41,191 nt of DNA, taken from positions 1 through 41,191 of the IMG/VR virus record IMGVR_UViG_3300021142_000072. One strand, written 5' to 3'. The notes under the pieces were generated by a model, which saw nothing but the letters and a program-made list of their open reading frames with translations, had not been told where the DNA came from and did not search any database. Made by a program: the position numbers and the translations under genes. This stretch comes from a virus (lineage: Duplodnaviria > Caudoviricetes). This document shows, in pieces, positions 5,892 through 17,333 of the stretch. The first letter of the stretch is position 1. The number at the start of each line of letters is the position of its first letter.

Positions 5892-5906
5892 ACATATCCG
5901 TCAGGA

Positions 5907-5922
5907 TGTGGGCTAAATCACA
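5907..5922. promoter_or_regulatory. CRP/GlxR-like box upstream of P1
   Basis: TGTGG-GCTAAA-TCACA, one mismatch from TGTGA-N6-TCACA, followed by an A/T tract. Confidence 0.55.
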
Positions 5923-5951
5923 AAAATTTTTTAAGATTTGGCTGAATATCC

Positions 5952-5979
5952 TTGACTTGGGTTTGGGTCAGAGTATAAT
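5952..5979 (+). promoter_or_regulatory. Sigma70/SigA-like promoter P1
   Basis: TTGACT-16 nt-TATAAT. Confidence 0.8.
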
Positions 5980-6025
5980 TAAGACATAACCCCGAACGGC
6001 GGTTATAGATTCTGGAGGAATCGAA

Positions 6026-6265
6026 ATGCAGGTCAAAGTTCCATCAAGGTTTTACAAAGACCACATGGATAGAAGCAATGAATATCAATCTCTTTTTAAC
6101 GCGGTCATTAAAGAAGTTGGCAACTATGTGGTTGCTGATTTAGACGAATCGCAAATTAGCGAATTGTTAAACGATGCAGAGTATTACGCAGATGGCGTGG
6201 ATTACCCCGAACTTCGCGGGTTGCAATCATCAGCCAAAGCAACAGTCAAAGCGCTAAGTAAGTAA
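6026..6265 (+). CDS. Hypothetical early protein
   Basis: GGAGG RBS, own promoter and terminator. Confidence 0.8.
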   Translation: MQVKVPSRFYKDHMDRSNEYQSLFNAVIKEVGNYVVADLDESQISELLNDAEYYADGVDYPELRGLQSSAKATVKALSK

Positions 6266-6267
6266 TT

Positions 6268-6310
6268 AAAAACAAAAACCCCTAGGTGCAGGATTGCCTA
6301 GGGGTTATTT
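6268..6310. terminator. Bidirectional terminator between convergent genes
   Basis: aacccctagg/cctaggggtt stem with an A tract before it and TTATTT after it. Confidence 0.8.
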
Positions 6311-6333
6311 GTCATTGCGGGGGGATGCGAATG

Positions 6334-6525
6334 TTACTCTAATTCCTCGTTATCCGGCAAACGGTCAGCATCGTATAACTCAATCTCGCTTGCTTTCATC
6401 GTATTGATTGCCATAACAAAAGCCGTGGTTGCGCGATTGGCGGCATCAGTTAATGCGTCTGGATGCGACTCAGACGATTGAACTTCAACTTCCAGTTCAT
6501 AGGCTCGGATTCTCACGCTAATCAT
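6334..6525 (-). CDS. Small acidic protein; the only credible minus-strand gene, probably leaderless
   Basis: Fills the intergenic gap, ends near the bidirectional terminator, and has TGtCATAAT 6 nt before its ATG. Confidence 0.7.
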   Translation of the reverse strand: MISVRIRAYELEVEVQSSESHPDALTDAANRATTAFVMAINTMKASEIELYDADRLPDNEELE

Positions 6526-6563
6526 GTCGCCATTATGACACGAAAAATATATCTTACAAATCC

Positions 6564-6593
6564 TTGACTTTCGATAACCGTAACCTTTACTCT
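6564..6593 (+). promoter_or_regulatory. Promoter P2
   Basis: TTGACT-18 nt-TACTCT; spacer contains GTAACCT. Confidence 0.6.
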
Positions 6594-6631
6594 AAACCCA
6601 ATGCCAAACGGGGCAGATAAACAAAGGAACG

Positions 6632-7198
6632 GTGATGGGTTTTAATTTAGATAATTACGAAACTGTTGCAGAACGCTTGCAACGCGCATTGGACACACAT
6701 CCAGATTTGCGAATCGTTAATGATTTGGTTCATGTAGAACGCAATGAAGATGGCAAGCCAATTCAATACATTGTTCGCGCACAAGTCTTTTTTGGCGATG
6801 TATTAAAGGGTCAGGATTTTGCAGAAGAGATGGTTGGTTCATCAAATGTCAATCGTGCGAGCGCCTTGGAAAATGCGTGTACGAGCGCAACGGGTCGCGC
6901 ACTCAGCCTGATTGGATTTATGGGAACTAATCCAGTTACGAAGAAGCCAGAGCGCCCTACTCGTCAGGACATGGAAAAGGATGCTCGCGTAACTGCATCT
7001 GCACCTACATTTACCGAAGAGCAAATCAATCTAGCAATCGAAGCAATCAGTCAAGTGCCAGAGATTACTTCTGTTGGTGAACTTAAGTTGTTCTACACCG
7101 GCGCACAAGATGCAGGATTGCTTCAGATTACTGTTGATGGAACAACATTGAACAAGGTTATCTCTGCCCGCAAGAAGGAATTGGAGGCGACCAAGTGA
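6632..7198 (+). CDS. Single-strand annealing protein (Rad52/Sak/ERF-like)
   Basis: FNLDNYETVAERL...SALENACTSATGRAL motifs; sits upstream of an exonuclease. Confidence 0.65.
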   Translation: MMGFNLDNYETVAERLQRALDTHPDLRIVNDLVHVERNEDGKPIQYIVRAQVFFGDVLKGQDFAEEMVGSSNVNRASALENACTSATGRALSLIGFMGTNPVTKKPERPTRQDMEKDARVTASAPTFTEEQINLAIEAISQVPEITSVGELKLFYTGAQDAGLLQITVDGTTLNKVISARKKELEATK

Positions 7199-7317
7199 GC
7201 ATGATGCACCCCACCGGTACTAACGACCGTTCCATCTTCCGTTCATTCGGTTCATGGGCTTTCTGGCTTGTCGTTGTTTGCGCAGCGGCTTATTTGTATG
7301 GGAAGTATTATTTATGA
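7195..7317 (+). CDS. Small membrane peptide (40 aa), not in the ORF track
   Basis: GGAGG RBS, GTGA and ATGA coupling, WAFWLVVVCAAAYLY TM segment. Confidence 0.6.
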   Translation: MSMMHPTGTNDRSIFRSFGSWAFWLVVVCAAAYLYGKYYL

Positions 7318-7661
7318 GCCTGACACCACAACAAGTTGAAAAGCGCTTGTATGACCTTAGCCTTGAAATGGATGAGGCACATAACGCCTTGGTAGAAGCC
7401 GAGACTCAATACTCAACATTGAAAGCCGTGTACGAAATCGCCATGGCTAAATCGCGTATGCGCAACTCTCATCCTGATATGAAAATGACGGTGGTAATGC
7501 GTGACGACCAAGCGCTTATTGACAACGCCGAGAAGCATGAGGCAGTCGCTTTTGCTGAGGCTACGGTCAAGGCGCACCGGGGAAATGTTGCCCGCATCAA
7601 AACGCAGGTGGACATCACTCGTTCTATCTCATCTTCAATCAAAGCCACATTGGACTTGTGA
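7314..7661 (+). CDS. Coiled-coil protein (possibly a recombination accessory factor)
   Basis: ATGA start at 7314; all-helical heptad pattern. Confidence 0.65.
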   Translation: MSLTPQQVEKRLYDLSLEMDEAHNALVEAETQYSTLKAVYEIAMAKSRMRNSHPDMKMTVVMRDDQALIDNAEKHEAVAFAEATVKAHRGNVARIKTQVDITRSISSSIKATLDL

Positions 7662-7828
7662 TGAGTTGGAAATCGCCATACGCAACCGACAAGCAAGCAA
7701 AGATTGAGACTCGCATCTCTGAAGCCGAAAAGGTGAAGTTCAATGATATATGCGCATCGCTGGACATGAAGCCAGCGCAAATGATTCGTTACTTTATTCA
7801 ACACGCAGTAGAAAACTTTGGTGAGTAA
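7661..7828 (+). CDS. Ribbon-helix-helix DNA-binding protein (55 aa), not in the ORF track
   Basis: MSWKSPYATDKQAKIETRISEAEKVKFNDICASLDMKPAQMIRYFIQHAVENFGE; coupled at both ends. Confidence 0.65.
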   Translation: MSWKSPYATDKQAKIETRISEAEKVKFNDICASLDMKPAQMIRYFIQHAVENFGE

Positions 7829-8076
7829 TGACACACGACGAGTTACTGGCAAAATTAAATCATATTGACCATAGCGCTGATTTGACAATGGACGAATCAG
7901 AGCAATATTTTTTCAAAGCCCTTCGCGCGGTAGTGGAATTGCATAAGCCATTCGGTTGGAATTCCAATAATCTTCATCTCTGCTGTATTGCTTGTGCTGA
8001 TTTTGATGATGGTGATGTTGTTCCAGCGGCTTATCCTTGCCCAACTATCCAAGCCATTGAGAAGGAGTTGGCATAA
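7828..8076 (+). CDS. Small zinc-binding protein (paralog of 14587-14811)
   Basis: ALRAVVELHKP..CxxC..YPCPTIQAIEKEL. Confidence 0.75.
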   Translation: MTHDELLAKLNHIDHSADLTMDESEQYFFKALRAVVELHKPFGWNSNNLHLCCIACADFDDGDVVPAAYPCPTIQAIEKELA

Positions 8077-8732
8077 TGGACATCGTTAAAACATTGACTA
8101 CGGCTTTGAGGGAAGCCGACAGTCAACGCGAACGCTCAGTTCAGATTGAGTTGGGAGCGAGTTCGGTTGGGGGTTGTCGCACTCAGGCGTGGCATATCCT
8201 CAACCAAACTCCCAAAACCAATCACGATACTGAATCGCTGGCAGCAATTATGGGAACGGCAATGCACACGGTTATTGCCGAAGCCCTAGCCGCGCACGAT
8301 GTCTTTGGCGATGATTTCATTCTTGAGGAATCGCTTAGCGATGAGTTCTTCAAAGGTCACGCCGATTTTTATTCACGCAAAGCCGAAGCCGTTTATGACT
8401 GGAAAACTGTCACACTTGCAAAGATGCAAAAAGGTGGTTTGCCTACCAAACAACAGAAAATGCAAGTGAACATTTACGCGAGCATGATTGCGCAGAAATA
8501 TCCAGTTAAGAAGGTTGGACTGGTATTCATTCCGCGTGATGGAAAGATGTCAGACATTCGTGTTTGGGAAGGCGAGTACGACCCAAAACTTGTTGAGGAA
8601 GCCCGTCAATGGGTTGCCGATGTGAAGGCGATGGACACCCCACCCGCGCCGGAAAGAAGTGCGGCGTTCTTCTGCCGTGAATACTGTTCATATTATGACC
8701 AAACGGGGGTTGCAGGATGTCAGGGAAAGTAG
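8076..8732 (+). CDS. Cas4-like PD-(D/E)XK exonuclease
   Basis: GASSVGGC, GTAMH, GHAD, DWKT, QVNIY and C-terminal CxxxC..C. Confidence 0.85.
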   Translation: MDIVKTLTTALREADSQRERSVQIELGASSVGGCRTQAWHILNQTPKTNHDTESLAAIMGTAMHTVIAEALAAHDVFGDDFILEESLSDEFFKGHADFYSRKAEAVYDWKTVTLAKMQKGGLPTKQQKMQVNIYASMIAQKYPVKKVGLVFIPRDGKMSDIRVWEGEYDPKLVEEARQWVADVKAMDTPPAPERSAAFFCREYCSYYDQTGVAGCQGK

Positions 8733-9085
8733 AAAAGAAAGTTGTTGACAGAAGCGCGGTTGATTGGTCGAAGGCTAATTGCCGGGGATTGAATACCGAC
8801 TTCTTTTTTATGGAAGAAGATTTGCTCAAGAACAAAGCGATGGCGCACAAGCAGATTCGTAAGATTTGTTTTCGTTGCCCGATTCGCCAGCAATGCTTAG
8901 AAGTCGGTTTTGCTTTTGAGCGTTATGGAATGTGGGGCGGCGTTGCAAGTTTGGAGCGCCACGACATCGTGAAGGGTAATTACGACTCGCGCATTTTGTC
9001 GCCACTTTTCAAAGATTTGGAAGAGTTCGGAGTACCTTTTGAGGAAATAGTTGAGGCATCAAATGTGGAGAGGGATTTAATGTGA
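8717..9085 (+). CDS. whiB: WhiB-family transcription factor
   Basis: W..ANC...FF...ICFRCPIRQQC...YGMWGG signature. Confidence 0.9.
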   Translation: MSGKVEKKVVDRSAVDWSKANCRGLNTDFFFMEEDLLKNKAMAHKQIRKICFRCPIRQQCLEVGFAFERYGMWGGVASLERHDIVKGNYDSRILSPLFKDLEEFGVPFEEIVEASNVERDLM

Positions 9086-9357
9086 AAACGATTATGCAGG
9101 AGGCGATAATGGCTTTCATCCATCGCCACAATGACCGATGCCTAGAAGCAGACATCACCAAATGCGAGTGTCACGATTTAGTTCAGCGCGCCCGTGAATA
9201 CGAGGCAAACATTGAGAACGAAATCAAAACCGAACTTATTTGGTTGATGAACGAGGAAAAAAATGTTTGGGTCAACTCATCAGAGAAGTCTGACTTCGTT
9301 GCGTGGATTGATTCCTTATGGGCAAATGCCATAGATTTTTTAGCCAAGATTAAATAA
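9082..9357 (+). CDS. Hypothetical protein
   Basis: GTGA coupling; H..C..CEC motif. Confidence 0.65.
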   Translation: MKTIMQEAIMAFIHRHNDRCLEADITKCECHDLVQRAREYEANIENEIKTELIWLMNEEKNVWVNSSEKSDFVAWIDSLWANAIDFLAKIK

Positions 9358-9368
9358 CTGGAGGAATT

Positions 9369-10280
9369 ATGAAGGCAGAAATTCTTGTAGGAGATGTGCG
9401 AACTCGTTTGTCGGAGATTCCTGATGGAAGTGTGCAAACTTGCGTAACTTCACCTCCGTATTGGGGTTTGCGGGATTACGGTCAAGGCGACCAAATTGGA
9501 TTGGAAGAAACACCACAAGAATATGTTGATTCTATGGTGCAAGTTTTTCGTGAGGTTTGGCGCGTATTAGCAGATGATGGAACGCTTTGGCTAAACATTG
9601 GCGATTCTTACTCTGGCAGCGGTAAAAGGCCGGCGGGCAATCTTGGCAAAAAAAATGATGAACGGAATATGGAAAAGAAACATAGCGCCATAGTTCCAGA
9701 TGGATTAAAGCCAAAAGATTTGGTGGGTATTCCTTGGCGCTTGGCTTTTGCTTTGCAAGCAGATGGTTGGTATTTGCGCCAAGACATTATTTGGGCTAAA
9801 CCAAATCCAATGCCTGAATCTGTAACTGACCGATGCACAAAATCGCATGAATATCTTTTTTTGCTTTCAAAATCAAATAAGTATTATTTTGACAATGAAG
9901 CAATCAAAGAACCAACGGTTACAAAAGATAATACAAACCGCGACCGAGATTCTTCTAAATTAAATAACACACCCGGTCGTTCTAGAAGTGGTGGTTTGAA
10001 AACTAATAATTACGATATGCGCAATAAACGCGATGTGTGGAACATACCTACCAAACCTTTTAAGGGTGCGCATTTTGCCGTTATGCCAGAAGCGTTAGTT
10101 GAACCATGTATTTTGGCTGGCTCGCGGCATGGCGATTTGGTTCTTGACCCATTTACAGGTTCGGGAACAGTAGCCGTTGTTTCATTAAAAAATGGTCGGG
10201 ATTTTATTGGAACAGAATTAAATCCTGAATATGCTGATATTGCAGTTGACAGAATTGGTATGGGGGCAGAAACAAAATGA
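9369..10280 (+). CDS. DNA methyltransferase (N4-C/N6-A, beta class)
   Basis: TSPPY catalytic motif precedes the LDPFTGSGT SAM-binding motif; no cognate restriction nuclease adjacent. Confidence 0.92.
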   Translation: MKAEILVGDVRTRLSEIPDGSVQTCVTSPPYWGLRDYGQGDQIGLEETPQEYVDSMVQVFREVWRVLADDGTLWLNIGDSYSGSGKRPAGNLGKKNDERNMEKKHSAIVPDGLKPKDLVGIPWRLAFALQADGWYLRQDIIWAKPNPMPESVTDRCTKSHEYLFLLSKSNKYYFDNEAIKEPTVTKDNTNRDRDSSKLNNTPGRSRSGGLKTNNYDMRNKRDVWNIPTKPFKGAHFAVMPEALVEPCILAGSRHGDLVLDPFTGSGTVAVVSLKNGRDFIGTELNPEYADIAVDRIGMGAETK

Positions 10281-10354
10281 TTGACGAACGCTTTTTACCT
10301 TATGCAATTTGCATTGTAGTTGCGATTCTTTGTTTGGCGGTGTGGGCGCTATGA
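10277..10354 (+). CDS. 25-aa membrane peptide, not in the ORF track
   Basis: MIDERFLPYAICIVVAILCLAVWAL; ATGA overlaps at both ends. Confidence 0.55.
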   Translation: MIDERFLPYAICIVVAILCLAVWAL

Positions 10355-11106
10355 GTTCGCTGCCATATATGCAACTGTATGTCAGCGACTATCTTGCCGA
10401 CACCGCACACCTTACGGCGCAACAACACGGCGCATATCTTTTGCTTTTGATGAATTATTGGCAAAAGGGAAAGCCGCTGGACAACACCAACGAGCGATTG
10501 CAATATGTCGCTCGCATGACCGGCGAAGAATGGGAAGCGAACAAAGACATTCTTGCCGAGTTCTTTTGGATTGACGGCGATACTTGGTCGCATACTCGCA
10601 TTGACAACGACCTTGAGAAGGTTCGGGAGAAATCCGAGAAGGCTTCGAAGGCTGGTCAACGGTCGTTCAACGTTCGTTCAACGTCTGTTGAACGTTCGTT
10701 CAACCATAAAGATAAAGATAAAGAGGAAGATAAAGACAATATAAAAGAAGGCTTTGACGAGTTTTGGGAAATTTATCCAAGAAAGGCTGGAAAGCAGGAA
10801 GCCCGTAAGGTATTCCAACGCGCTTTGTCTAATGCCACGCTTGCAGAGATTCTTGAAGGCGCTCGCCGTTACGCAGCAGACCCTAATCGCCAGCCGCAAT
10901 TCACGGCGCATCCTGCTACATGGCTCAATCAAGGCAGGTGGAGCGATGAACCACTACCACCTAGAACGACAACCACGGTCACGCGAACTTTGCCACCGGC
11001 ACAAGTGCCACCCCAATATGACCCTGATGAGTTTCGTAACCCACAGGCAACTCAAATGCCATCAGAAATTTTGGCTAATTTGCAACATATCTTGAAGCGG
11101 GTATAG
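10351..11106 (+). CDS. Replication initiator-like protein (DUF1376/YdaU family)
   Basis: LPYMQLYVSDYLADT.HL...HGAYLLLL..YW N-terminus; FDEFWEIYPRK...HPATWLNQGRW C-terminus. Confidence 0.8.
   Translation: MSSLPYMQLYVSDYLADTAHLTAQQHGAYLLLLMNYWQKGKPLDNTNERLQYVARMTGEEWEANKDILAEFFWIDGDTWSHTRIDNDLEKVREKSEKASKAGQRSFNVRSTSVERSFNHKDKDKEEDKDNIKEGFDEFWEIYPRKAGKQEARKVFQRALSNATLAEILEGARRYAADPNRQPQFTAHPATWLNQGRWSDEPLPPRTTTTVTRTLPPAQVPPQYDPDEFRNPQATQMPSEILANLQHILKRV
10654..10740. repeat. Iteron-like repeats plus A-rich tract (candidate replication origin)
   Basis: TCGTTCAAC at 10663, 10674 and 10696, inverted GTTGAACG at 10687, then GATAAA repeats, all inside the initiator gene. Confidence 0.55.
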
Positions 11107-11145
11107 AATGACCCTTTATCAACGATAGAAAAGGGTCTGTAAGCC

Positions 11146-11565
11146 ATGAATAGATTATGCGCTAGGTGTTCAAAGCAAATAGAACTTCCAAAGCCCACAT
11201 CAAGGAAAAAATATTGCGATGAGTGCTTGCTTTTAATTGCATCAGAATCATCTAAAAAAAGTACCGATTTAAGGATTGAAAAAAGCAAAAAGTATGTTTT
11301 TACATCCCCTACTCGGCGTTACAACAAAGAATCAAAATATGCACAAATTTTGATTGGCACTCAATGGTATCCAGAACATCGAATCGTGATGCAGGAAATG
11401 TTAAAACGACCTTTGGTAAAAGGAGAATCGGTTCATCACATTAACGGAATACGAGACGATAACCGACCCGAAAATTTGGAATTATGGGTCGGCCCAATTA
11501 GATACGGGCAAAGGGCGGCTGACATTAAATGCCATAATTGCGGCGAACCTTACAAAATAAGTTAA
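11146..11565 (+). CDS. HNH endonuclease
   Basis: EHRIVM...[18 protein letters not shown]; flanking Cys pairs; AT-rich. Confidence 0.85.
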
Positions 11566-11627
11566 TGTCTGATTTGCCCCGATGTAAGTAATCTGTCACA
11601 CTTTAATTCCGAAAGGGGGATACCACT

Positions 11628-11819
11628 ATGAAACTGATTCATTTGGTAGCAGTAGAGCAGGTAGAAGTTGGGGATGTGCTGGTTCTCGGCGCGACCCGCT
11701 ATGGAGTGACTTCGATTGAGGATGAAAGCACCGGGCGCGATTTTCGCCTCCGCGATTCATCGGGCAATCCGAAGTGCCACTTTGTGGCAACAGGAGAAAA
11801 AGTCACCATCGAATTATGA
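11628..11819 (+). CDS. Small beta-barrel hypothetical protein
   Basis: AGGGGG RBS; coupled to the RusA gene. Confidence 0.65.
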   Translation: MKLIHLVAVEQVEVGDVLVLGATRYGVTSIEDESTGRDFRLRDSSGNPKCHFVATGEKVTIEL

Positions 11820-12205
11820 TTCGATTCGGGGTGGAAGGCACTCCGATTCCGCAAGGGTCAATGAAGCACATTGGCAATGGGCGCATGATTCATTCGCGGG
11901 CAACAGAACTTGCCACATGGCGGGCGCTGATTGCTCTGGCGGCTAAACAAGCAGGATGCGAGCCAATCCCTGACCCGATTGCGATTGCCATGACCTTTCG
12001 GCTCAAAAAGCCTAAGACGGTCAAACGCGATTTTCCTACGGTCGCACCGGATTTGGACAAACTCGTTCGCGGGGTGCTGGATTCGCTTACGGCGTGTGCT
12101 TACCTTGACGATTCTCAGGTGATAGACATAAAGGCTAAAAAAGTCTATTCGGACATTCCGGGCGTGGATATTGAGATTTCCGATGCGTGGGATTGTGTGA
12201 CCTAA
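11816..12205 (+). CDS. rusA: RusA-family Holliday junction resolvase
   Basis: GTPIPQGS, PDLDKLVRGVLDSL, DDSQV. Confidence 0.9.
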   Translation: MIRFGVEGTPIPQGSMKHIGNGRMIHSRATELATWRALIALAAKQAGCEPIPDPIAIAMTFRLKKPKTVKRDFPTVAPDLDKLVRGVLDSLTACAYLDDSQVIDIKAKKVYSDIPGVDIEISDAWDCVT

Positions 12206-12211
12206 CTCACA
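12196..12211. promoter_or_regulatory. CRP/GlxR box upstream of P3
   Basis: Perfect TGTGA-CCTAAC-TCACA followed by A tracts. Confidence 0.7.
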
Positions 12212-12241
12212 AAAAAACTTTGAAAAAAACCCTTGAAATGG

Positions 12242-12270
12242 TTGAGTCCGTAACCTATCGGGTATATCTT
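12242..12270 (+). promoter_or_regulatory. Promoter P3
   Basis: TTGAGT-17 nt-TATCTT; same architecture as P4. Confidence 0.65.
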
Positions 12271-12313
12271 TTACTTATTGAACCGGACGGCGGTTCTAGA
12301 ACTGGAGAAGAAA

Positions 12314-12613
12314 ATGTCACACAAGTTTCAAATCAAGCGCACCGAAGTTGGTTATGTTTCATGTTGCGGTCATGTAATCACCAAGATTACAAAAGATGTT
12401 GACCCAGATATGTATGGTTCAGTCAACTGGTACTTTGCAAACCTTGATGGCGTTATGAACGACAACCCTTTCTACACATTGAGCGACCTTCGCATCTACC
12501 TTGGCAAGTTGCATGATGCAAATGTAGAAAATCCAATAGAGCGTTGGATGTCAGTTATGGAACGCGCTGATGCAACATTGGCAAAATACAACGCATCAAA
12601 GGTAGGTGCATAA
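12314..12613 (+). CDS. Hypothetical early protein
   Basis: CTGGAGAAG RBS before ATG 12314. Confidence 0.75.
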   Translation: MSHKFQIKRTEVGYVSCCGHVITKITKDVDPDMYGSVNWYFANLDGVMNDNPFYTLSDLRIYLGKLHDANVENPIERWMSVMERADATLAKYNASKVGA

Positions 12614-12614
12614 C

Positions 12615-12890
12615 ATGACAACAGTAACAACTCAAAAAATTCAAGGTATTGCAAAGCGCAACGGCATTTCTTTGATAGATGAAACTCGGTCACGCTATGC
12701 CGACATTGCATCAGGTGTTCGCGTAACTAATCGTTTTGGCGAAATTGTGGTGCGTTTTTACGGTTACAAAGACACCAACCGCATTAACGAATTGCAAGCC
12801 AAGTTTATTGAATTGCTAAACGCCGAGGGCTTTATTGCAAAAGAAAAAAGCGGTTATACAACCCGCGCGATTACAGTTGAGGTTGCATAA
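12615..12890 (+). CDS. Hypothetical protein (paralog of 15316-15600)
   Basis: AGGTG RBS; VTTQKIQGIAKRNGISLIDETR. Confidence 0.75.
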   Translation: MTTVTTQKIQGIAKRNGISLIDETRSRYADIASGVRVTNRFGEIVVRFYGYKDTNRINELQAKFIELLNAEGFIAKEKSGYTTRAITVEVA

Positions 12891-12891
12891 C

Positions 12892-13152
12892 ATGATTAAA
12901 TTCAATGCAGGAGATGCAGCACCGTTTCATCCAAAAGCAGTTGATTCGGTTGAAATTGAATTTTGTTTTGTATGTGGTCGCAAACTTGGTGCAAACCCAA
13001 TTTATTTTGAAGTGATTAACGGTGGAGAATTGCGCGAGCAAAATGGAACACAAGCAATTCAAGATGGCGGTTACATGGGTTATTTTCCAGTAGGTTCTGA
13101 ATGTGCAAAAAAGTTTGCACCAAATGTTGCAGTTGTAAAGGTAGGTGCATAA
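12892..13152 (+). CDS. Small zinc-binding protein
   Basis: CFVCGRKL...PVGSECAKK; GAGG RBS. Confidence 0.75.
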   Translation: MIKFNAGDAAPFHPKAVDSVEIEFCFVCGRKLGANPIYFEVINGGELREQNGTQAIQDGGYMGYFPVGSECAKKFAPNVAVVKVGA

Positions 13153-13442
13153 TGGCATCAGCAACTTTTACCGTCACGATTACCGATTCAGACTTTGACC
13201 GCCTTCATAACAGTTCAATGCGATGGGGCAAGGATTGGGCAAAGCAGGTTAATCGTTTTGATAGCGAGCCACTTTTTACTTGGAAGATGGCGTATTGGTG
13301 CGAACCTAATTGGCTCAACATCCTTGTCTGTCAGCAATTCCTGTCGGCTCGCGGATATGAGTCACAGACCGTATTTGATAGCGCAACCCTTGAATATGTA
13401 ATCCTGACCAATTACAAGTCGGAGGTTTGGGCAAATGATTGA
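13152..13442 (+). CDS. Hypothetical protein
   Basis: TAATG coupling; AGGTAGG RBS. Confidence 0.7.
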   Translation: MASATFTVTITDSDFDRLHNSSMRWGKDWAKQVNRFDSEPLFTWKMAYWCEPNWLNILVCQQFLSARGYESQTVFDSATLEYVILTNYKSEVWAND

Positions 13443-13527
13443 GGTTCTATTGCTAGTAGGCTTGCCGGTTATTACCATTGTATTTCTATCCATCGTGTTT
13501 GACATTGAGGAAAGGCTGACCAAATGA
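13435..13527 (+). CDS. 30-aa membrane peptide, not in the ORF track
   Basis: GGAGG RBS; MIEVLLLVGLPVITIVFLSIVFDIEERLTK. Confidence 0.6.
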   Translation: MIEVLLLVGLPVITIVFLSIVFDIEERLTK

Positions 13528-13772
13528 AAATCGTTTGCAAAGAAAACCATTGGTACATCAAAGACAATCAGGTTCGCCTTGAGACTCCAGAAGGCAATCA
13601 GGTGGACATGATTAAGGCGATTGAGGCAACAATCCGCTTACACATTTACGAGCAGATTTGCGCCTTAGATTTAACAACCAATCGTGCGCAAATTGTCAAG
13701 AACGGTATTGATAAGACCGCTTTGACGGTACAAGATTTATGCGCTCAGATTGCATTGGGGGAAAAGAAATGA
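13524..13772 (+). CDS. Hypothetical protein
   Basis: ATGA coupling at both ends. Confidence 0.7.
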   Translation: MKIVCKENHWYIKDNQVRLETPEGNQVDMIKAIEATIRLHIYEQICALDLTTNRAQIVKNGIDKTALTVQDLCAQIALGEKK

Positions 13773-14137
13773 ACGAAGAGTTGCCATTACTTCCTTATGC
13801 CGGCACTTCGGGCTGGTCGGGAACTGAGACAAGCAAACAACGCGCTATTACGGCTGACAAGAATGGCACGACTCGCAGCCGTCAACGCAAGGCAATGTTT
13901 CTTCTTGCCGAAGCCGGTGAAGCAGGTTTGACATGGAAAGAACTAGGCGACCTGACTGGCTGGCATCATGGAACGGTATCGGGGCTTCTCTCTGTTTTGA
14001 ATCGTGAGAATTACATTGTCCGACTCAAGGCAACGCGTAACAAGTGCGCCATTTATGTTCATCCCAATTTCATATCATCGCGTGAAATTTCTCAGCGCAA
14101 GACCAAGACTTGCAAGCATTGTGGGGGTGAACTCTAA
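13769..14137 (+). CDS. Winged-helix DNA-binding protein with C-terminal CxxC
   Basis: GLTWKELGDLTGWHHGTVSGLLS HTH; CKHCG. Confidence 0.7.
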   Translation: MNEELPLLPYAGTSGWSGTETSKQRAITADKNGTTRSRQRKAMFLLAEAGEAGLTWKELGDLTGWHHGTVSGLLSVLNRENYIVRLKATRNKCAIYVHPNFISSREISQRKTKTCKHCGGEL

Positions 14138-14307
14138 TGCCTACATATCAGTACCGATGCAAGGAATGTAAGGCGTTTATGGAACTGCATCAGAGTTTTT
14201 ATGATGATTCGATTCCTGATTGCGTAAAGTGCGAAAAACCTATGTCAAAGGTTATTCAGGCAACACCGGCGATATTCCGCGGTGGAGGATGGGGAGGGTC
14301 AAAATGA
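14137..14307 (+). CDS. FmdB-family zinc-ribbon protein (56 aa), not in the ORF track
   Basis: MPTYQYRCKEC...PDCVKC...IFRGGGWG. Confidence 0.85.
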   Translation: MPTYQYRCKECKAFMELHQSFYDDSIPDCVKCEKPMSKVIQATPAIFRGGGWGGSK

Positions 14308-14486
14308 AAACATTTTGTAAAAGAATTTTTGGGCGAGAAGTTCACCTTTCAATCTTTCCCCGGTACAAACGCCGCAAGCCATACTTAAAATTGCGCCTCA
14401 TGCCAAGTTATTACGCGAACAATCGCATTTTTGAGTTAACCGTCTTTGCAAAAAGTTACCGAGTGAACTGGACACCTCAACGATGA
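14304..14486 (+). CDS. Small basic hypothetical protein
   Basis: GGAGG RBS; ATGA coupling. Confidence 0.6.
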   Translation: MKTFCKRIFGREVHLSIFPRYKRRKPYLKLRLMPSYYANNRIFELTVFAKSYRVNWTPQR

Positions 14487-14587
14487 TTGTGAAACTTGCC
14501 TTGTTATGGGTTGCATTTATTGACACCGTAGGTATCGCGTTTGGAATCTACGGATACTTTGCCGCCAAAAAGAAATGGGTCAAATAA
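14483..14587 (+). CDS. 34-aa membrane peptide, not in the ORF track
   Basis: MIVKLALLWVAFIDTVGIAFGIYGYFAAKKKWVK; coupled at both ends. Confidence 0.55.
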   Translation: MIVKLALLWVAFIDTVGIAFGIYGYFAAKKKWVK

Positions 14588-14811
14588 TGACACATGAAGA
14601 ATTGCTAGAAAAAATAAATGAATACAGTTCATCGCTTGGGGATAAAACTCGCAGACCCTTTTTTAATGCGCTTCGTGCAGTAGTGGAATTACACAAGCCA
14701 GTTAAATCAGATTATGAATATATTTATTGCGAAGAATGTACCGATGATTCTTATGTTTACATTAAATATCCTTGCCCCACTATTCAAGCCATTGAGAAGG
14801 AGTTGGGATAA
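14587..14811 (+). CDS. Small zinc-binding protein (paralog of 7828-8076)
   Basis: ALRAVVELHKP..CEEC..YPCPTIQAIEKEL. Confidence 0.75.
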   Translation: MTHEELLEKINEYSSSLGDKTRRPFFNALRAVVELHKPVKSDYEYIYCEECTDDSYVYIKYPCPTIQAIEKELG

Positions 14812-14945
14812 TGCACAAAGACATTCCTTTGCGTAAAGGCTGGATACATTGTGGATATAGCAAAAGGTTCGGTCTAGGTATCAGTATTGACAAGTACGGC
14901 GTGGATATTGACTTTTTGATTTTCTATATTGGCTGGCAACGCTAA
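14811..14945 (+). CDS. 44-aa hypothetical protein, not in the ORF track
   Basis: AAGGAG RBS; TAATG coupling at both ends. Confidence 0.6.
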   Translation: MHKDIPLRKGWIHCGYSKRFGLGISIDKYGVDIDFLIFYIGWQR

Positions 14946-15184
14946 TGGAACTAAACGACATCCTTGCCGAACGCCAAGAACAGTACGGCGACCCAACCGA
15001 GAACTTTCGCAAGATAGGGATTATGTGGGGTGTCATTCTTGACCTTCCTTACTCCTTAGCGCCCTATCAAGTGGCTCAGATGATGATTGCCTTAAAACTT
15101 CAACGCATTTCGGTCAATCCCGACTACGAAGATTCTTGGCTGGACATACAGGGCTACGCCGCACACGGGGCATTAGACAAATAA
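14945..15184 (+). CDS. DUF6378-like all-alpha protein
   Basis: ERQEQYGDP.ENF.KI...W...MIALKLQR...DSWLDIQGYA. Confidence 0.75.
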   Translation: MELNDILAERQEQYGDPTENFRKIGIMWGVILDLPYSLAPYQVAQMMIALKLQRISVNPDYEDSWLDIQGYAAHGALDK

Positions 15185-15206
15185 CCCCTAAATGTCCAAA
15201 ATACCG

Positions 15207-15222
15207 TGTGACGCAACTCACA
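15207..15222. promoter_or_regulatory. CRP/GlxR box upstream of P4
   Basis: Perfect TGTGA-CGCAAC-TCACA followed by an A tract. Confidence 0.7.
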
Positions 15223-15242
15223 AAGAAAAATGGCGTTTTGGC

Positions 15243-15271
15243 TTGATTCTGTAACCTATTGCGGCTACATT
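15243..15271 (+). promoter_or_regulatory. Promoter P4
   Basis: TTGATT-17 nt-TACATT. Confidence 0.7.
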
Positions 15272-15315
15272 TGTCTTATTGAAGTGAACGGCACTTCAAA
15301 GAACTGGAGAAGAAA

Positions 15316-15600
15316 ATGCACAAGAACCACCCAATCGTAACAACCGCAAAACTTCGCGCGTTGGTTAAGAAAAATGAAATCGGTTATGTTGACCGTACGC
15401 GCCGTCAAATTTCTTCAATGACAAACGGTGTTGCAATTTCACAACTTGGAAGCGATATTTATGTCGAAGGTTTTGGATTTAACGACCAAATTGTAATTGC
15501 GCAAAACATTGCAAAGTTTGATGAGGCACTTGCATCACTTGGTTTAACTCTTACTAAACTCAATGATTCAGATTATAAAGTCGTAAAGGTTGGTGCATAA
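15316..15600 (+). CDS. Hypothetical early protein (paralog of 12615-12890)
   Basis: CTGGAGAAG RBS; VTTAKLRALVKKNEIGYVDRTR. Confidence 0.75.
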   Translation: MHKNHPIVTTAKLRALVKKNEIGYVDRTRRQISSMTNGVAISQLGSDIYVEGFGFNDQIVIAQNIAKFDEALASLGLTLTKLNDSDYKVVKVGA

Positions 15601-15601
15601 C

Positions 15602-15862
15602 ATGAACGCAACAATAAACAAGATTCGTCCAGTCGAACAACACATGATTGACACAGAAAGTTTTTATTTGGCAAAGGTGACAATGTATCGCCAAGACCAA
15701 AAAACCGGTGGTGTTTCAGACATTGTTGAAACTTATGAAGGTTATGTTAAGCAAGTTGGTGGAATTATCTGGAAGATTCGTTCTTCTGCAAATATGCGTT
15801 CAAATTTCAAGAAAGACATTTGCACAGTTTCACAACGCCTTATTTCAATCGAAATTTTGTAA
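15602..15862 (+). CDS. Hypothetical protein
   Basis: Starts at the repeated GGTGCATAACATG junction. Confidence 0.7.
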   Translation: MNATINKIRPVEQHMIDTESFYLAKVTMYRQDQKTGGVSDIVETYEGYVKQVGGIIWKIRSSANMRSNFKKDICTVSQRLISIEIL

Positions 15863-15863
15863 G

Positions 15864-16046
15864 ATGTCTGAAGAGCGTTTTATTTTATCTAGCCCTAATG
15901 AAATCAAGGTGTTATACAGACCCAAACCTAAAGCCGACTGGAACATTGGTCGGTGTAAGGGATGCGGAGAATGGGTTGTATTTGACCGCTCATGTTCGGC
16001 TTGCTCTACAATTACACCACAACCGACTAAGGAGGTTCAGAAATGA
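15864..16046 (+). CDS. Small zinc-finger protein (60 aa)
   Basis: ATG 15864 directly after the upstream stop; CKGC...CSAC. Confidence 0.55.
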   Translation: MSEERFILSSPNEIKVLYRPKPKADWNIGRCKGCGEWVVFDRSCSACSTITPQPTKEVQK

Positions 16047-16075
16047 ACGCACTTAACAACGGAGGCACACGATGA
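16043..16075 (+). CDS. Minigene 1 (MNALNNGGTR)
   Basis: Strong AAGGAGGT RBS; ATGA overlaps at both ends. Confidence 0.5.
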   Translation: MNALNNGGTR

Positions 16076-16110
16076 GCGCTATGGAACAGGCGGCGATTGG
16101 TTCGCGCTGA
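16072..16110 (+). CDS. Minigene 2 (MSAMEQAAIGSR)
   Basis: GGAGG RBS; ATGA start overlap; stop overlaps the CTG of the next gene. Confidence 0.5.
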   Translation: MSAMEQAAIGSR

Positions 16111-16538
16111 AGTTCAAGACTCGTTTCCTTGTAGTCGCCGTTCTTGCGGTAGGAATCGGGTTTGCAAGCCCATCGGTAGCGCAAAGCCCTAAAGCATTTA
16201 CGGATGCTATTGAGCGCACACCGGCAGCGGCGAAAGCCTATGCACAATCACAACTTCATAAATACGGATGGAACTCCACTTATCAATGGAGATGCCTAGT
16301 CACCGTCTGGACTAACGAGAGTAATTGGCGACCAAACGCCTACAACATAACTCCCGTTAAACTAGTGGTGGATGGGTTGACGGTTTCCTATCATGCCGGG
16401 GGCATACCTCAGCGAATTGGACTGTCTCCAAAAGCAAGCGTTAGCACTCAGGTTAATGTTGGATTGCGGTATATTTCCGACCGATATGGAAACCCCTGCA
16501 ACGCACTTCGCTTCTGGAATCGCCATTACTGGTATTGA
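16107..16538 (+). CDS. Secreted lytic transglycosylase (SLT/lysozyme-like, 143 aa) with probable CTG start; not in the ORF track
   Basis: Signal peptide KFKTRFLVVAVLAVGIGFASPSVA; WTNESNWRPNAYN (catalytic Glu), AGGIPQ, QVNVGLRYISDRYGNPCNALRFWNRHYWY. Confidence 0.85.
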   Translation: MKFKTRFLVVAVLAVGIGFASPSVAQSPKAFTDAIERTPAAAKAYAQSQLHKYGWNSTYQWRCLVTVWTNESNWRPNAYNITPVKLVVDGLTVSYHAGGIPQRIGLSPKASVSTQVNVGLRYISDRYGNPCNALRFWNRHYWY

Positions 16539-16549
16539 GAATGACAATC

Positions 16550-16709
16550 CAGACCGCGCTTACGGGCGCGAGTCACTAGATTTCACGGGAAGGCCGTTCC
16601 CTACCCGTGAAGATACGACTGCTTGAGCGCATGATTACCTCCAGTTGATTGCGCTCGCGGTCGTCTGCCTTAGCCCCACATTTCTCAAGGGTGTGGGGCT
16701 TTGTGCTTT
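16550..16709 (+). ncRNA. Candidate multi-hairpin small RNA with C-rich loops
   Basis: Intergenic; stems at 16555-16570 (UACG loop), 16582-16611 (CCGUUC loop) and 16615-16664 (CCUCCAGU loop), then a terminator. Confidence 0.65.
16672..16709 (+). terminator. Rho-independent terminator
   Basis: agccccaca/tgtggggct stem followed by TTGTGCTTT. Confidence 0.75.
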
Positions 16710-16741
16710 GTAGCCACAATGTAGCCACAATGTAGCCACAA
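16709..16741. repeat. Three perfect tandem copies of TGTAGCCACAA
   Basis: Copies at 16709, 16720 and 16731. Confidence 0.95.
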
Positions 16742-16799
16742 AATATAGTCTAAAACATATATTTGCTAATAAGTTACGCACATGGTGTAAGGTATCCCC

Positions 16800-17333
16800 A
16801 TGACCACGATTGTTGCCCGACAGTATGCCGACAAAGTGGTTATCGGGGCAGATTCGTTGGTTACGGCAACCCGCAAATACACGCATCCTAAGATGGTCAA
16901 AATAACCGAACGCGGTCAATACCTAATTGCCGGTGCTGGCTTGTCTAGTTTTTGCGATGTGGCTCAACACATATTTAATCCACCAAAGCCGACCGAAGCC
17001 GACAAAAAAGATTTGTACCATTTTATGATTTCTAAATTTATTCCGGCACTTAAGCAATGCTTCAAAGATAATGACCTCAAGTTGGAAGATGATAAAGATG
17101 AAGAAACGCGATTTGCTTTCTTGGTTGCAATTAATGGTGAAGTTTTTGATATTGCTGATGATTTCGCTATTTGTCTTGATTCTGACGGCATCTATGGGAT
17201 TGGTAGTGGCAGTAGCCTTGCTATTGGGGCGCTTAAGCAAGGTGCGAGTATTAAGAAGGCTCTCACGATTGCTGCCGACAAAGACCCATACACCGCTCCC
17301 CCATTTCTCATTGTTGAGCAAAAGCGTGGATAA
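16800..17333 (+). CDS. HslV / proteasome-beta-like Ntn threonine peptidase
   Basis: M-TTI N-terminal Thr, IGADS, K, AGAG, GIGSGS..A.GAL, DPYT; TAAGGT -10 element 6 nt before the ATG. Confidence 0.85.
   Translation: MTTIVARQYADKVVIGADSLVTATRKYTHPKMVKITERGQYLIAGAGLSSFCDVAQHIFNPPKPTEADKKDLYHFMISKFIPALKQCFKDNDLKLEDDKDEETRFAFLVAINGEVFDIADDFAICLDSDGIYGIGSGSSLAIGALKQGASIKKALTIAADKDPYTAPPFLIVEQKRG

Follow-up and report, generated by a model that had tools for sequence, protein, structure and literature searches.

Staphylococcal RNAIII and RsaE carry C-rich loops. In phages, the C4 RNA of P1 and P7 is described in parts of three sources (PMC5320573, PMC8198154 and PMC2864571) as using one loop, b', to occlude a ribosome-binding site (RBS) and another, a', to provide specificity. 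Sections of PMC5320573 add that small changes in the specificity loop define the phage type and that C4 is cut from a longer transcript. The CI RNA of satellite phage P4, according to a portion of PMC4825925, arises by processing of a transcript and binds two sites in the leader of that same transcript. In the mycobacterial 6C/B11 sRNA, described in part of PMC10470900, the loops of two hairpins pair with RBSs and translation is repressed. Cluster K mycobacteriophages carry the start-associated sequence (SAS), a conserved extended RBS motif before non-structural genes, whose partner is given as unknown in the accessible part of PMC3203893; four of these phages are described there as having one SAS copy in the opposite orientation. 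Our search of the literature available without subscription found no description of a system equivalent to the one reported here, and the accessible portions of a review (PMC12197685) and of the SviR preprint describe none. Hairpins of this kind may already sit, without a function, among the 10,006 candidate viral RNAs of PMC10690425.

Here we analyze a 41,191-nt stretch of phage DNA, referred to in full as the window. The original prediction, made from its sequence, was that the intergenic region at 16550-16709 encodes a trans-acting, multi-target small RNA. Our findings, drawn from complementarity and co-variation, largely support this, except for the first of its hairpins and for a conserved pairing with a DNA methylase gene. 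They suggest that positions 16582-16664 probably form a small plus-strand antisense RNA that represses early-gene translation by two-loop pairing.

The locus and its genome

The window represents a complete phage genome, and its terminal repeat is 127 nt long. It encodes WhiB, which has 580 matches among cultured phages, nearly all of them actinobacterial, pointing to an actinobacterium as the likely host. A BLASTN search against 50,697 cultured phages returned no match to the window, and searches with WhiB and the terminase among cultured phages recovered distant relatives only (<60% identity); no close cultured relative was found.

Directly upstream of the RNA lies a transglycosylase-like gene (16107-16538, plus strand; PHROG 12661, E 6e-16), a label already given in the original prediction that holds, as does that of the DNA methylase (PF01555). 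Its start codon is uncertain and likely CTG. The frame lacks an ATG, a frame of 12 codons just ahead of it (16072-16110) ends in a TGA that overlaps the CTG, and a signal-peptide-like stretch begins at that CTG; the overlap and the signal-peptide-like stretch suggest a coupled, non-canonical start. Across relatives, the gap between the transglycosylase stop and the RNA is a hotspot for the insertion of additional genes, among them several methylase-like ones (L427, L533, L536, L542 and L546).

Downstream of the RNA is an HslV-family peptidase gene (16800-17333, plus strand; phrog_1040). Straight after the terminator, an 11-nt unit stands in three direct copies (16709-16741), with copy number and sequence differing among close relatives. 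An extended -10-like element, TGGTGTAAGGT (16783-16802), lies 6 nt ahead of the HslV ATG and is kept in many relatives; the HslV mRNA is likely leaderless and would be out of the RNA's reach. Elsewhere in the genome (24934-26445), an ADP-ribosyltransferase domain is fused to a MuF head protein.

A conserved two-hairpin structure

Three hairpins followed by a terminator had been predicted in 16550-16709. The plus strand does fold into three hairpins and a terminator-like hairpin, at -76.6 kcal/mol (z -6.2, with none of 200 shuffles as good), and the minus strand of the same region folds well too (z -5.3). Judged from its relatives, however, the conserved unit is two hairpins, at 16582-16664, after the transglycosylase gene. 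Hairpin A (16582-16611, plus strand), supported by fold and covariation, displays loop A, GCCGTTCC at 16593-16600, the putative specificity loop. Hairpin B (16615-16664, plus strand) has a conserved 2-nt bulge and contains the loop B region CATGATTACCTCCAGTT (16630-16646, plus strand), within which loop B itself, CCTCCAG at 16638-16644, is the putative anti-RBS loop. A terminator-like hairpin with a weak T-rich tail (16672-16709, plus strand) forms the likely 3' end.

Relatives were gathered via the transglycosylase and via sequence patterns, and 33 distinct cores were collected, of which 32 were aligned (L399 was dropped for an N). The loops on which the original prediction turned are nearly fixed in these cores, while the stems vary in compensating pairs. 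Overall, 86.8% of 637 cells are paired and two-sided changes are seen at 14 of the 20 pairs; none of 500 shuffles reaches the score, and slid controls are only 40-48% paired. For hairpin B, the corresponding values are 94% of cells and 8 of 12 pairs, and hairpin A is under-counted in the tally because of the alignment register.

The two hairpins sit after the transglycosylase gene in relatives or, as in L533, L542 and L546, after a few inserted genes. A large clade has neither hairpin 1 nor a separate terminator: hairpin A starts a few bases past the stop codon, and a T-rich run stands directly 3' of hairpin B. The separate terminator-like hairpin of the original prediction is present in the window, with many relatives having the T-run instead. 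Hairpin 1 (16552-16574, plus strand) is lineage-specific and lies outside the conserved RNA; it was rejected as a part of the RNA because it is missing in the large clade and falls within a short +1 reading frame that stops at 16626. This frame (about 16486-16626) overlaps the transglycosylase end, and its D..P...RES peptide is kept in 16 distinct versions, with an ATG of its own in L427 (upstream of 9693). L426 and L427 have a separate short gene with two cysteines.

Distant types (L414, at 9157-9270, L426, L476 and L530) have a third hairpin with a variable loop between A and B; in L530 this loop holds CCTTTC, complementary to a GAAAGG RBS. In L404 (8556-8627) a tRNA gene lies within a few bases of hairpin B, and tRNA processing could form the 3' end of the RNA there.

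There is one copy of the RNA per genome. An RNA model, R1, found no match in the other transglycosylase family (62 loci, L019-L080), in 8 similar loci or in 10 bacterial loci; nor does R1 detect the distant types L414, L476, L491, L493, L530 and L537. An exact 17-mer scan and two loose patterns gave mostly chance hits among the matches listed, with the loose patterns yielding L142 and L334. Searches against Rfam returned no match in the window at the gathering score, none in 16500-16760 at E up to 10, and only a tRNA in 20 related loci. An origin of the RNA as an inverted leader copy was considered and rejected, as the stems are unrelated and the site order is not inverted.

Candidate targets in the window

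As predicted, the leaders behind three plus-strand promoters, P1, P3 and P4, each carry both sites: the loop of the leader hairpin is complementary to loop A, and the RBS to loop B. P1 (5952-6028; promoter 5952-5979, leader 5986-6028) has its hairpin loop at 5994-6000 and its RBS at 6012-6018. The equivalent positions are 12285-12291 and 12300-12307 for P3 (12242-12316, leader 12277-12316), and 15286-15292 and 15302-15309 for P4 (15243-15318, leader 15278-15318). The P1 promoter alone was called by scan; those of P3 and P4, which share a 55-nt repeat (D8), were read by eye. From 5986, 12277 and 15278, the leaders open with a hairpin that has GAACGGC or GGACGGC as its loop; CTGGAG and then ATG come next. 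All strings quoted in the original prediction lie where it had placed them, including GAACGGC at 5994 and 15286, GGACGGC at 12285, CTGGAGG at 6012 and AACTGGAG at 9356, 12300 and 15302. The three leader 7-mers sit in hairpin loops, as had been claimed; for P1, the minimum-free-energy (MFE) fold closes part of the loop.

P4 heads an operon that would read into the RNA, and P1 is closed by its own terminator (6277-6306). The first genes behind P1, P3 and P4 belong to no Pfam family. About 63-73 nt upstream of the three starts lie TGTGA-N6-TCACA boxes (5907-5922, 12196-12211 and 15207-15222), which are CRP/GlxR-like; similar boxes were seen in 2 of the 14 related loci checked.

A single match is expected by chance, since GAACGGC alone occurs 8 times on the plus strand, and the original prediction had said as much of any single 7-mer. 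The two-site pattern, which was written post hoc, occurs three times on the plus strand and not at all on the minus strand; the simulated mean is 0.05, and none of 300 simulated genomes has at least three. Start regions were ranked by an accessibility-aware two-site score with contiguous helices, using 70 automatically chosen starts, some of which are probably wrong. The three two-site leaders ranked 1-3 of 70, and the five targets named in the original prediction (P1, P3, P4, the gene at 6635 and the methylase) ranked 1, 2, 3, 4 and 8. TGGAG or GGAACGG stands ahead of 6 of the 26 starts in 5900-16600 of the window, versus 4 of 44 elsewhere. At 14 of the 44 starts outside the early region the motif is AGGAGA or AGGAA; such starts score near zero and so would escape the RNA.

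Two of the named targets have one site each. The best loop A site among the 70 starts is the RBS of gene 6635-7198 (6626-6637, plus strand), GGAACGGT, which pairs over 8 bp with loop A and includes GGAACGG at 6626. The original prediction took this gene for the SSAP gene; it has no Pfam family and matches only PHROGs of unknown function. In the window and in L436 and L142 its RBS reads GGAACGG(C/T), and other relatives have (C)TGGAGG or GGAGGC, indicating that the target alternates between pairing sites for loop A and for loop B. The leader of this gene also holds a hairpin (6600-6617) with a conserved stem (AATGCC...GGCAGA) and a loop that varies across relatives, which would make a further motif and might be bound by a protein.

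The best loop B site belongs to the DNA methylase, whose RBS region (9356-9371, plus strand) forms 10 contiguous bp with loop B. The original prediction had extended this to 16 bp, with one bulge and one G-U, over the start codon. The longer pairing can be drawn in the window, but in the fold the CATGATT half of it is taken up by pairing within hairpin B, and a conserved pairing over the methylase ATG was rejected because the extension across the start codon is not kept. The gene itself is patchy, being found in 5 of the 34 related loci searched; 4 of those 5 carry ATTGGGGG, whose pairing with loop B is retained by means of G-U.

Co-variation of loops and leaders

Loop changes and leader sequences co-vary across the relatives, in line with the original prediction. 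The window pairs CCGTTC in loop A with GAACGG. Loop A CTGATT is found with leader loop AATCAG (two leaders in G010, four in G006), CCGTTT with AAACGG or AGACGG (G008, L426), CCGTAT with ATACGG (three leaders in L476), and GTCGTTC with GAACGAC and GAACGAA (L452). Loop B tracks the RBS even where the RBS is AAACGAAAG, and distant types have loop B TTTGCCTCC with GGAGGCAAA. Both loops and both sites are changed in L531, one of 11 newly added loci (TTGTTC/GAACAA and CCTCCGT/ACGGAGG), and L530 has loop A CCGTTTA with TAAACGG and loop B CTTTCGTTTG with RBS CAAACGAAAG.

Several loops were predicted beforehand. A CCGTRT loop was expected in L476, L429 and L427; L476 was then found to have it, the L429 contig ends before the RNA position, and the L427 loop is CCGTTT, which fits its own leader and not the prediction. 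An anti-GAAAGG loop B was predicted for L530 and L534. The L530 loop is one letter off the predicted 7-mer, and in L534, where leaders are present, no RNA was found between the transglycosylase and HNH genes. Elsewhere the match is imperfect: G007 has 4 bp only (ACACGG versus CCGTAAT), GAACGAC in G002, G004 and L457 meets loop A with one A-C mismatch, and no well-matching leader was found in the available sequence of G012 and L535.

With leaders chosen by a loop-blind rule in 25 phages of nine groups, the cognate RNA-leader assignment came first among 362,880 permutations, both for loop A and for loops A and B together (for loop B, two were as good), a count that is not a probability, the groups having been drawn with the loops in view and being related by descent in the tree. 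Seventeen of the 25 phages pair best with the RNA of their own group and 8 pair better with that of another. L398, L429, L529, L534, L536, L537, L538, L546 and short contigs, which have no RNA or no leader in the available sequence, fall outside this count. The HslV tree was unusable for the distant types.

On these comparisons the RNA-RNA pairing is very probably real. Trans-acting phage RNAs with defined targets in their own phage are few, and intermolecular co-variation is seldom visible from sequence alone; since both partners co-change in several lineages, the relatives provide naturally occurring cognate pairs alongside non-cognate ones.

Proposed mechanism and alternatives

We infer that the RNA derives from the 3' end of a transcript that passes through the transglycosylase gene; no promoter of its own was found. 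Loop A would kiss the hairpin loop at about +1 of likely early transcripts and give specificity, and loop B would cover the RBS 8-16 nt downstream and give the block. Since site order does not differ between RNA and mRNA, pairing would require two short helices that are separate. Such binding would prevent initiation at the first gene downstream of every promoter of this kind, with the RNA acting in trans on P1 and P3 as well as on its own P4 operon, and the early genes would be shut down as the RNA accumulates during infection. Given the pairing, there is a good chance that translation is repressed. The layout suits negative feedback or early shut-off, and early-gene shut-off is the likeliest role, with superinfection immunity as the rival; on balance, we lean towards a shut-off timer or feedback as the main role.

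Five complete genomes contain no tyrosine integrase, serine recombinase or HTH_3 repressor, and this favors a lytic timer over lysogenic immunity, as does the fact that no close prophage was found among 185,579 bacterial genomes. The diverse loop codes nonetheless keep immunity in play. The RNA might be a superinfection-immunity or carrier-state factor, with a resident phage silencing the early leaders of a newcomer of the same loop type, so that loop types would be immunity groups as with C4 of P1 and P7. In C4, a minor alteration of the a' region limits specificity between P1 and P7 (from part of PMC5320573), and the relatives have at least six loop A/leader codes, although such a code could also diversify by drift via G-U intermediates (GGACGGC, AGACGG). 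In L476, G007 and L530 the RNA follows a target-leader promoter at a distance of about 0.8-1.1 kb, as in an autoregulated arrangement. Taken together, we regard immunity as a tentative possibility.

Early-gene shut-off by pairing in trans must also be weighed against pairing that is mainly in cis or acts on transcription, either with the 3' end folding onto its own leader or with binding to the nascent leader causing premature termination, as described for the CI RNA of phage P4 in a portion of PMC4825925. We consider this unlikely: the P4 leader and the RNA do lie on one likely operon, and the leader hairpins, at about +1, are reachable on nascent RNA, but P1 keeps both sites despite its own terminator, loop B always lies over the RBS and tracks RBS changes, and up to four leaders per genome have the same code.

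Early-gene shut-off by an antisense RNA further presupposes that the plus strand is the functional one, which the stems suggest is likely. In the stem register, plus-strand G-U pairs outnumber A-C (22 versus 7), and terminators or T-runs lie on the plus strand only. A plain MFE comparison does not favor the plus strand (G-U 48 versus 45, with the minus strand more stable in 23 of 32). A minus-strand RNA that acts as a decoy, showing copies of the leader loop and RBS and titrating a leader-binding protein, seems highly improbable. That strand folds well, as noted above, and would display GGAACGGC and CTGGAGG in loops, and the mismatched cases (GAACGAC, ACACGG) would suit a tolerant protein. However, its weak promoter match (16769-16742, 9/12) is at chance level, with 29 found versus 29.6 expected; one clade leaves only about 15-20 nt from hairpin B to the promoter-like site of the next gene; and the protein would need altered specificity at both sites in L530 and L531. 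That the hairpins are a chance product or by-product, either terminators with a generic anti-SD loop (CCTCC) or a minus-strand peptide gene with an RBS, an ATG and an 18-codon frame from 16632, is barely credible, being largely refuted by the stem covariation, by L530, whose loop B follows a non-canonical RBS, and by the permutation result, with loop A co-varying with a non-SD loop; the peptide gene was itself rejected, as its frame is shifted in L009 and its ATG is missing in L017.

If the two-loop RNA acts as proposed, it would provide an RNA route to end the early phase, or to exclude kin, in apparently lytic actinophages, hint at the purpose of conserved start-associated motifs in other actinophages, and offer small orthogonal RNA-leader pairs for gene control. 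A broader idea, which we offer as speculation with a modest chance of being right, is that repressor-less phages run their entire early regulon on an RNA lock-and-key code, in which all strong early promoters open with a hairpin barcode and an RBS, a single two-armed RNA reads the two, and barcode variants serve as immunity groups among relatives that co-infect. Such a code may also explain the SAS of Cluster K.

Comparison with known systems

The original prediction had likened the RNA to staphylococcal RNAIII and RsaE; the phage C4 and CI RNAs are closer.

The SAS differs from the leader motif in being unrelated in sequence and in having no described RNA partner. The Angelica stretch examined contains 16 SAS copies in the forward direction and a single reverse copy with 1 mismatch (L551, 28635); this reverse copy lies within annotated gene 92, where folding places it in the loop of a long hairpin. 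In TM4, the stretch examined shows 10 forward copies and none in reverse. A reverse-SAS hairpin in one of two genomes is a lead rather than a result. With 6C/B11 the phage RNA shares the two-hairpin actinobacterial design. Both B11 loops are C-rich and redundant, whereas the phage loops differ, appear to recognize a pair of sites within a single leader and evolve in step with the leaders; in place of a cytosine run in each loop, loop A varies from that of the window to CTGATT and TTGTTC, and no Rfam match to 6C/B11 was obtained.

Like CI, the phage RNA has a proposed source transcript whose own leader would carry two sites. CI gives premature termination in one operon, whereas loop B of the phage RNA would cover the RBSs of several operons. 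Its two-site targets do not flank it, lying 1.3, 4.3 and 10.6 kb upstream at separate promoters, and there was no Rfam match to CI RNA.

Like C4 (RF01695), the phage RNA would use two short, distinct loops, the first directed at an upstream specificity site and the second at the RBS, as complementarity and co-variation both indicate. The C4 covariance model has no match in the window, in 16500-16760 at E up to 10, or in the 20 related loci. Judged from MFE folds, the phage RNA adopts open two- or three-hairpin folds and, unlike C4, has no conserved helix joining its 5' and 3' ends and no set of three stem-loops with an RNase P processing helix. C4 targets one antirepressor operon, whereas the phage RNA would target leaders at several early-region promoters, and its upstream specificity site is itself a hairpin loop. 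The phages differ as well: the five complete genomes lack the integrase and HTH_3 repressor, the host is likely actinobacterial, and no antirepressor operon of a temperate phage was recognized from the Pfam searches of the first genes behind P1, P3 and P4. By this comparison, the RNA is one that works like the C4 antisense RNA of P1 and P7 but is not a C4 member, and it likely represents a new family of two-loop antisense RNAs with a co-evolving leader motif.
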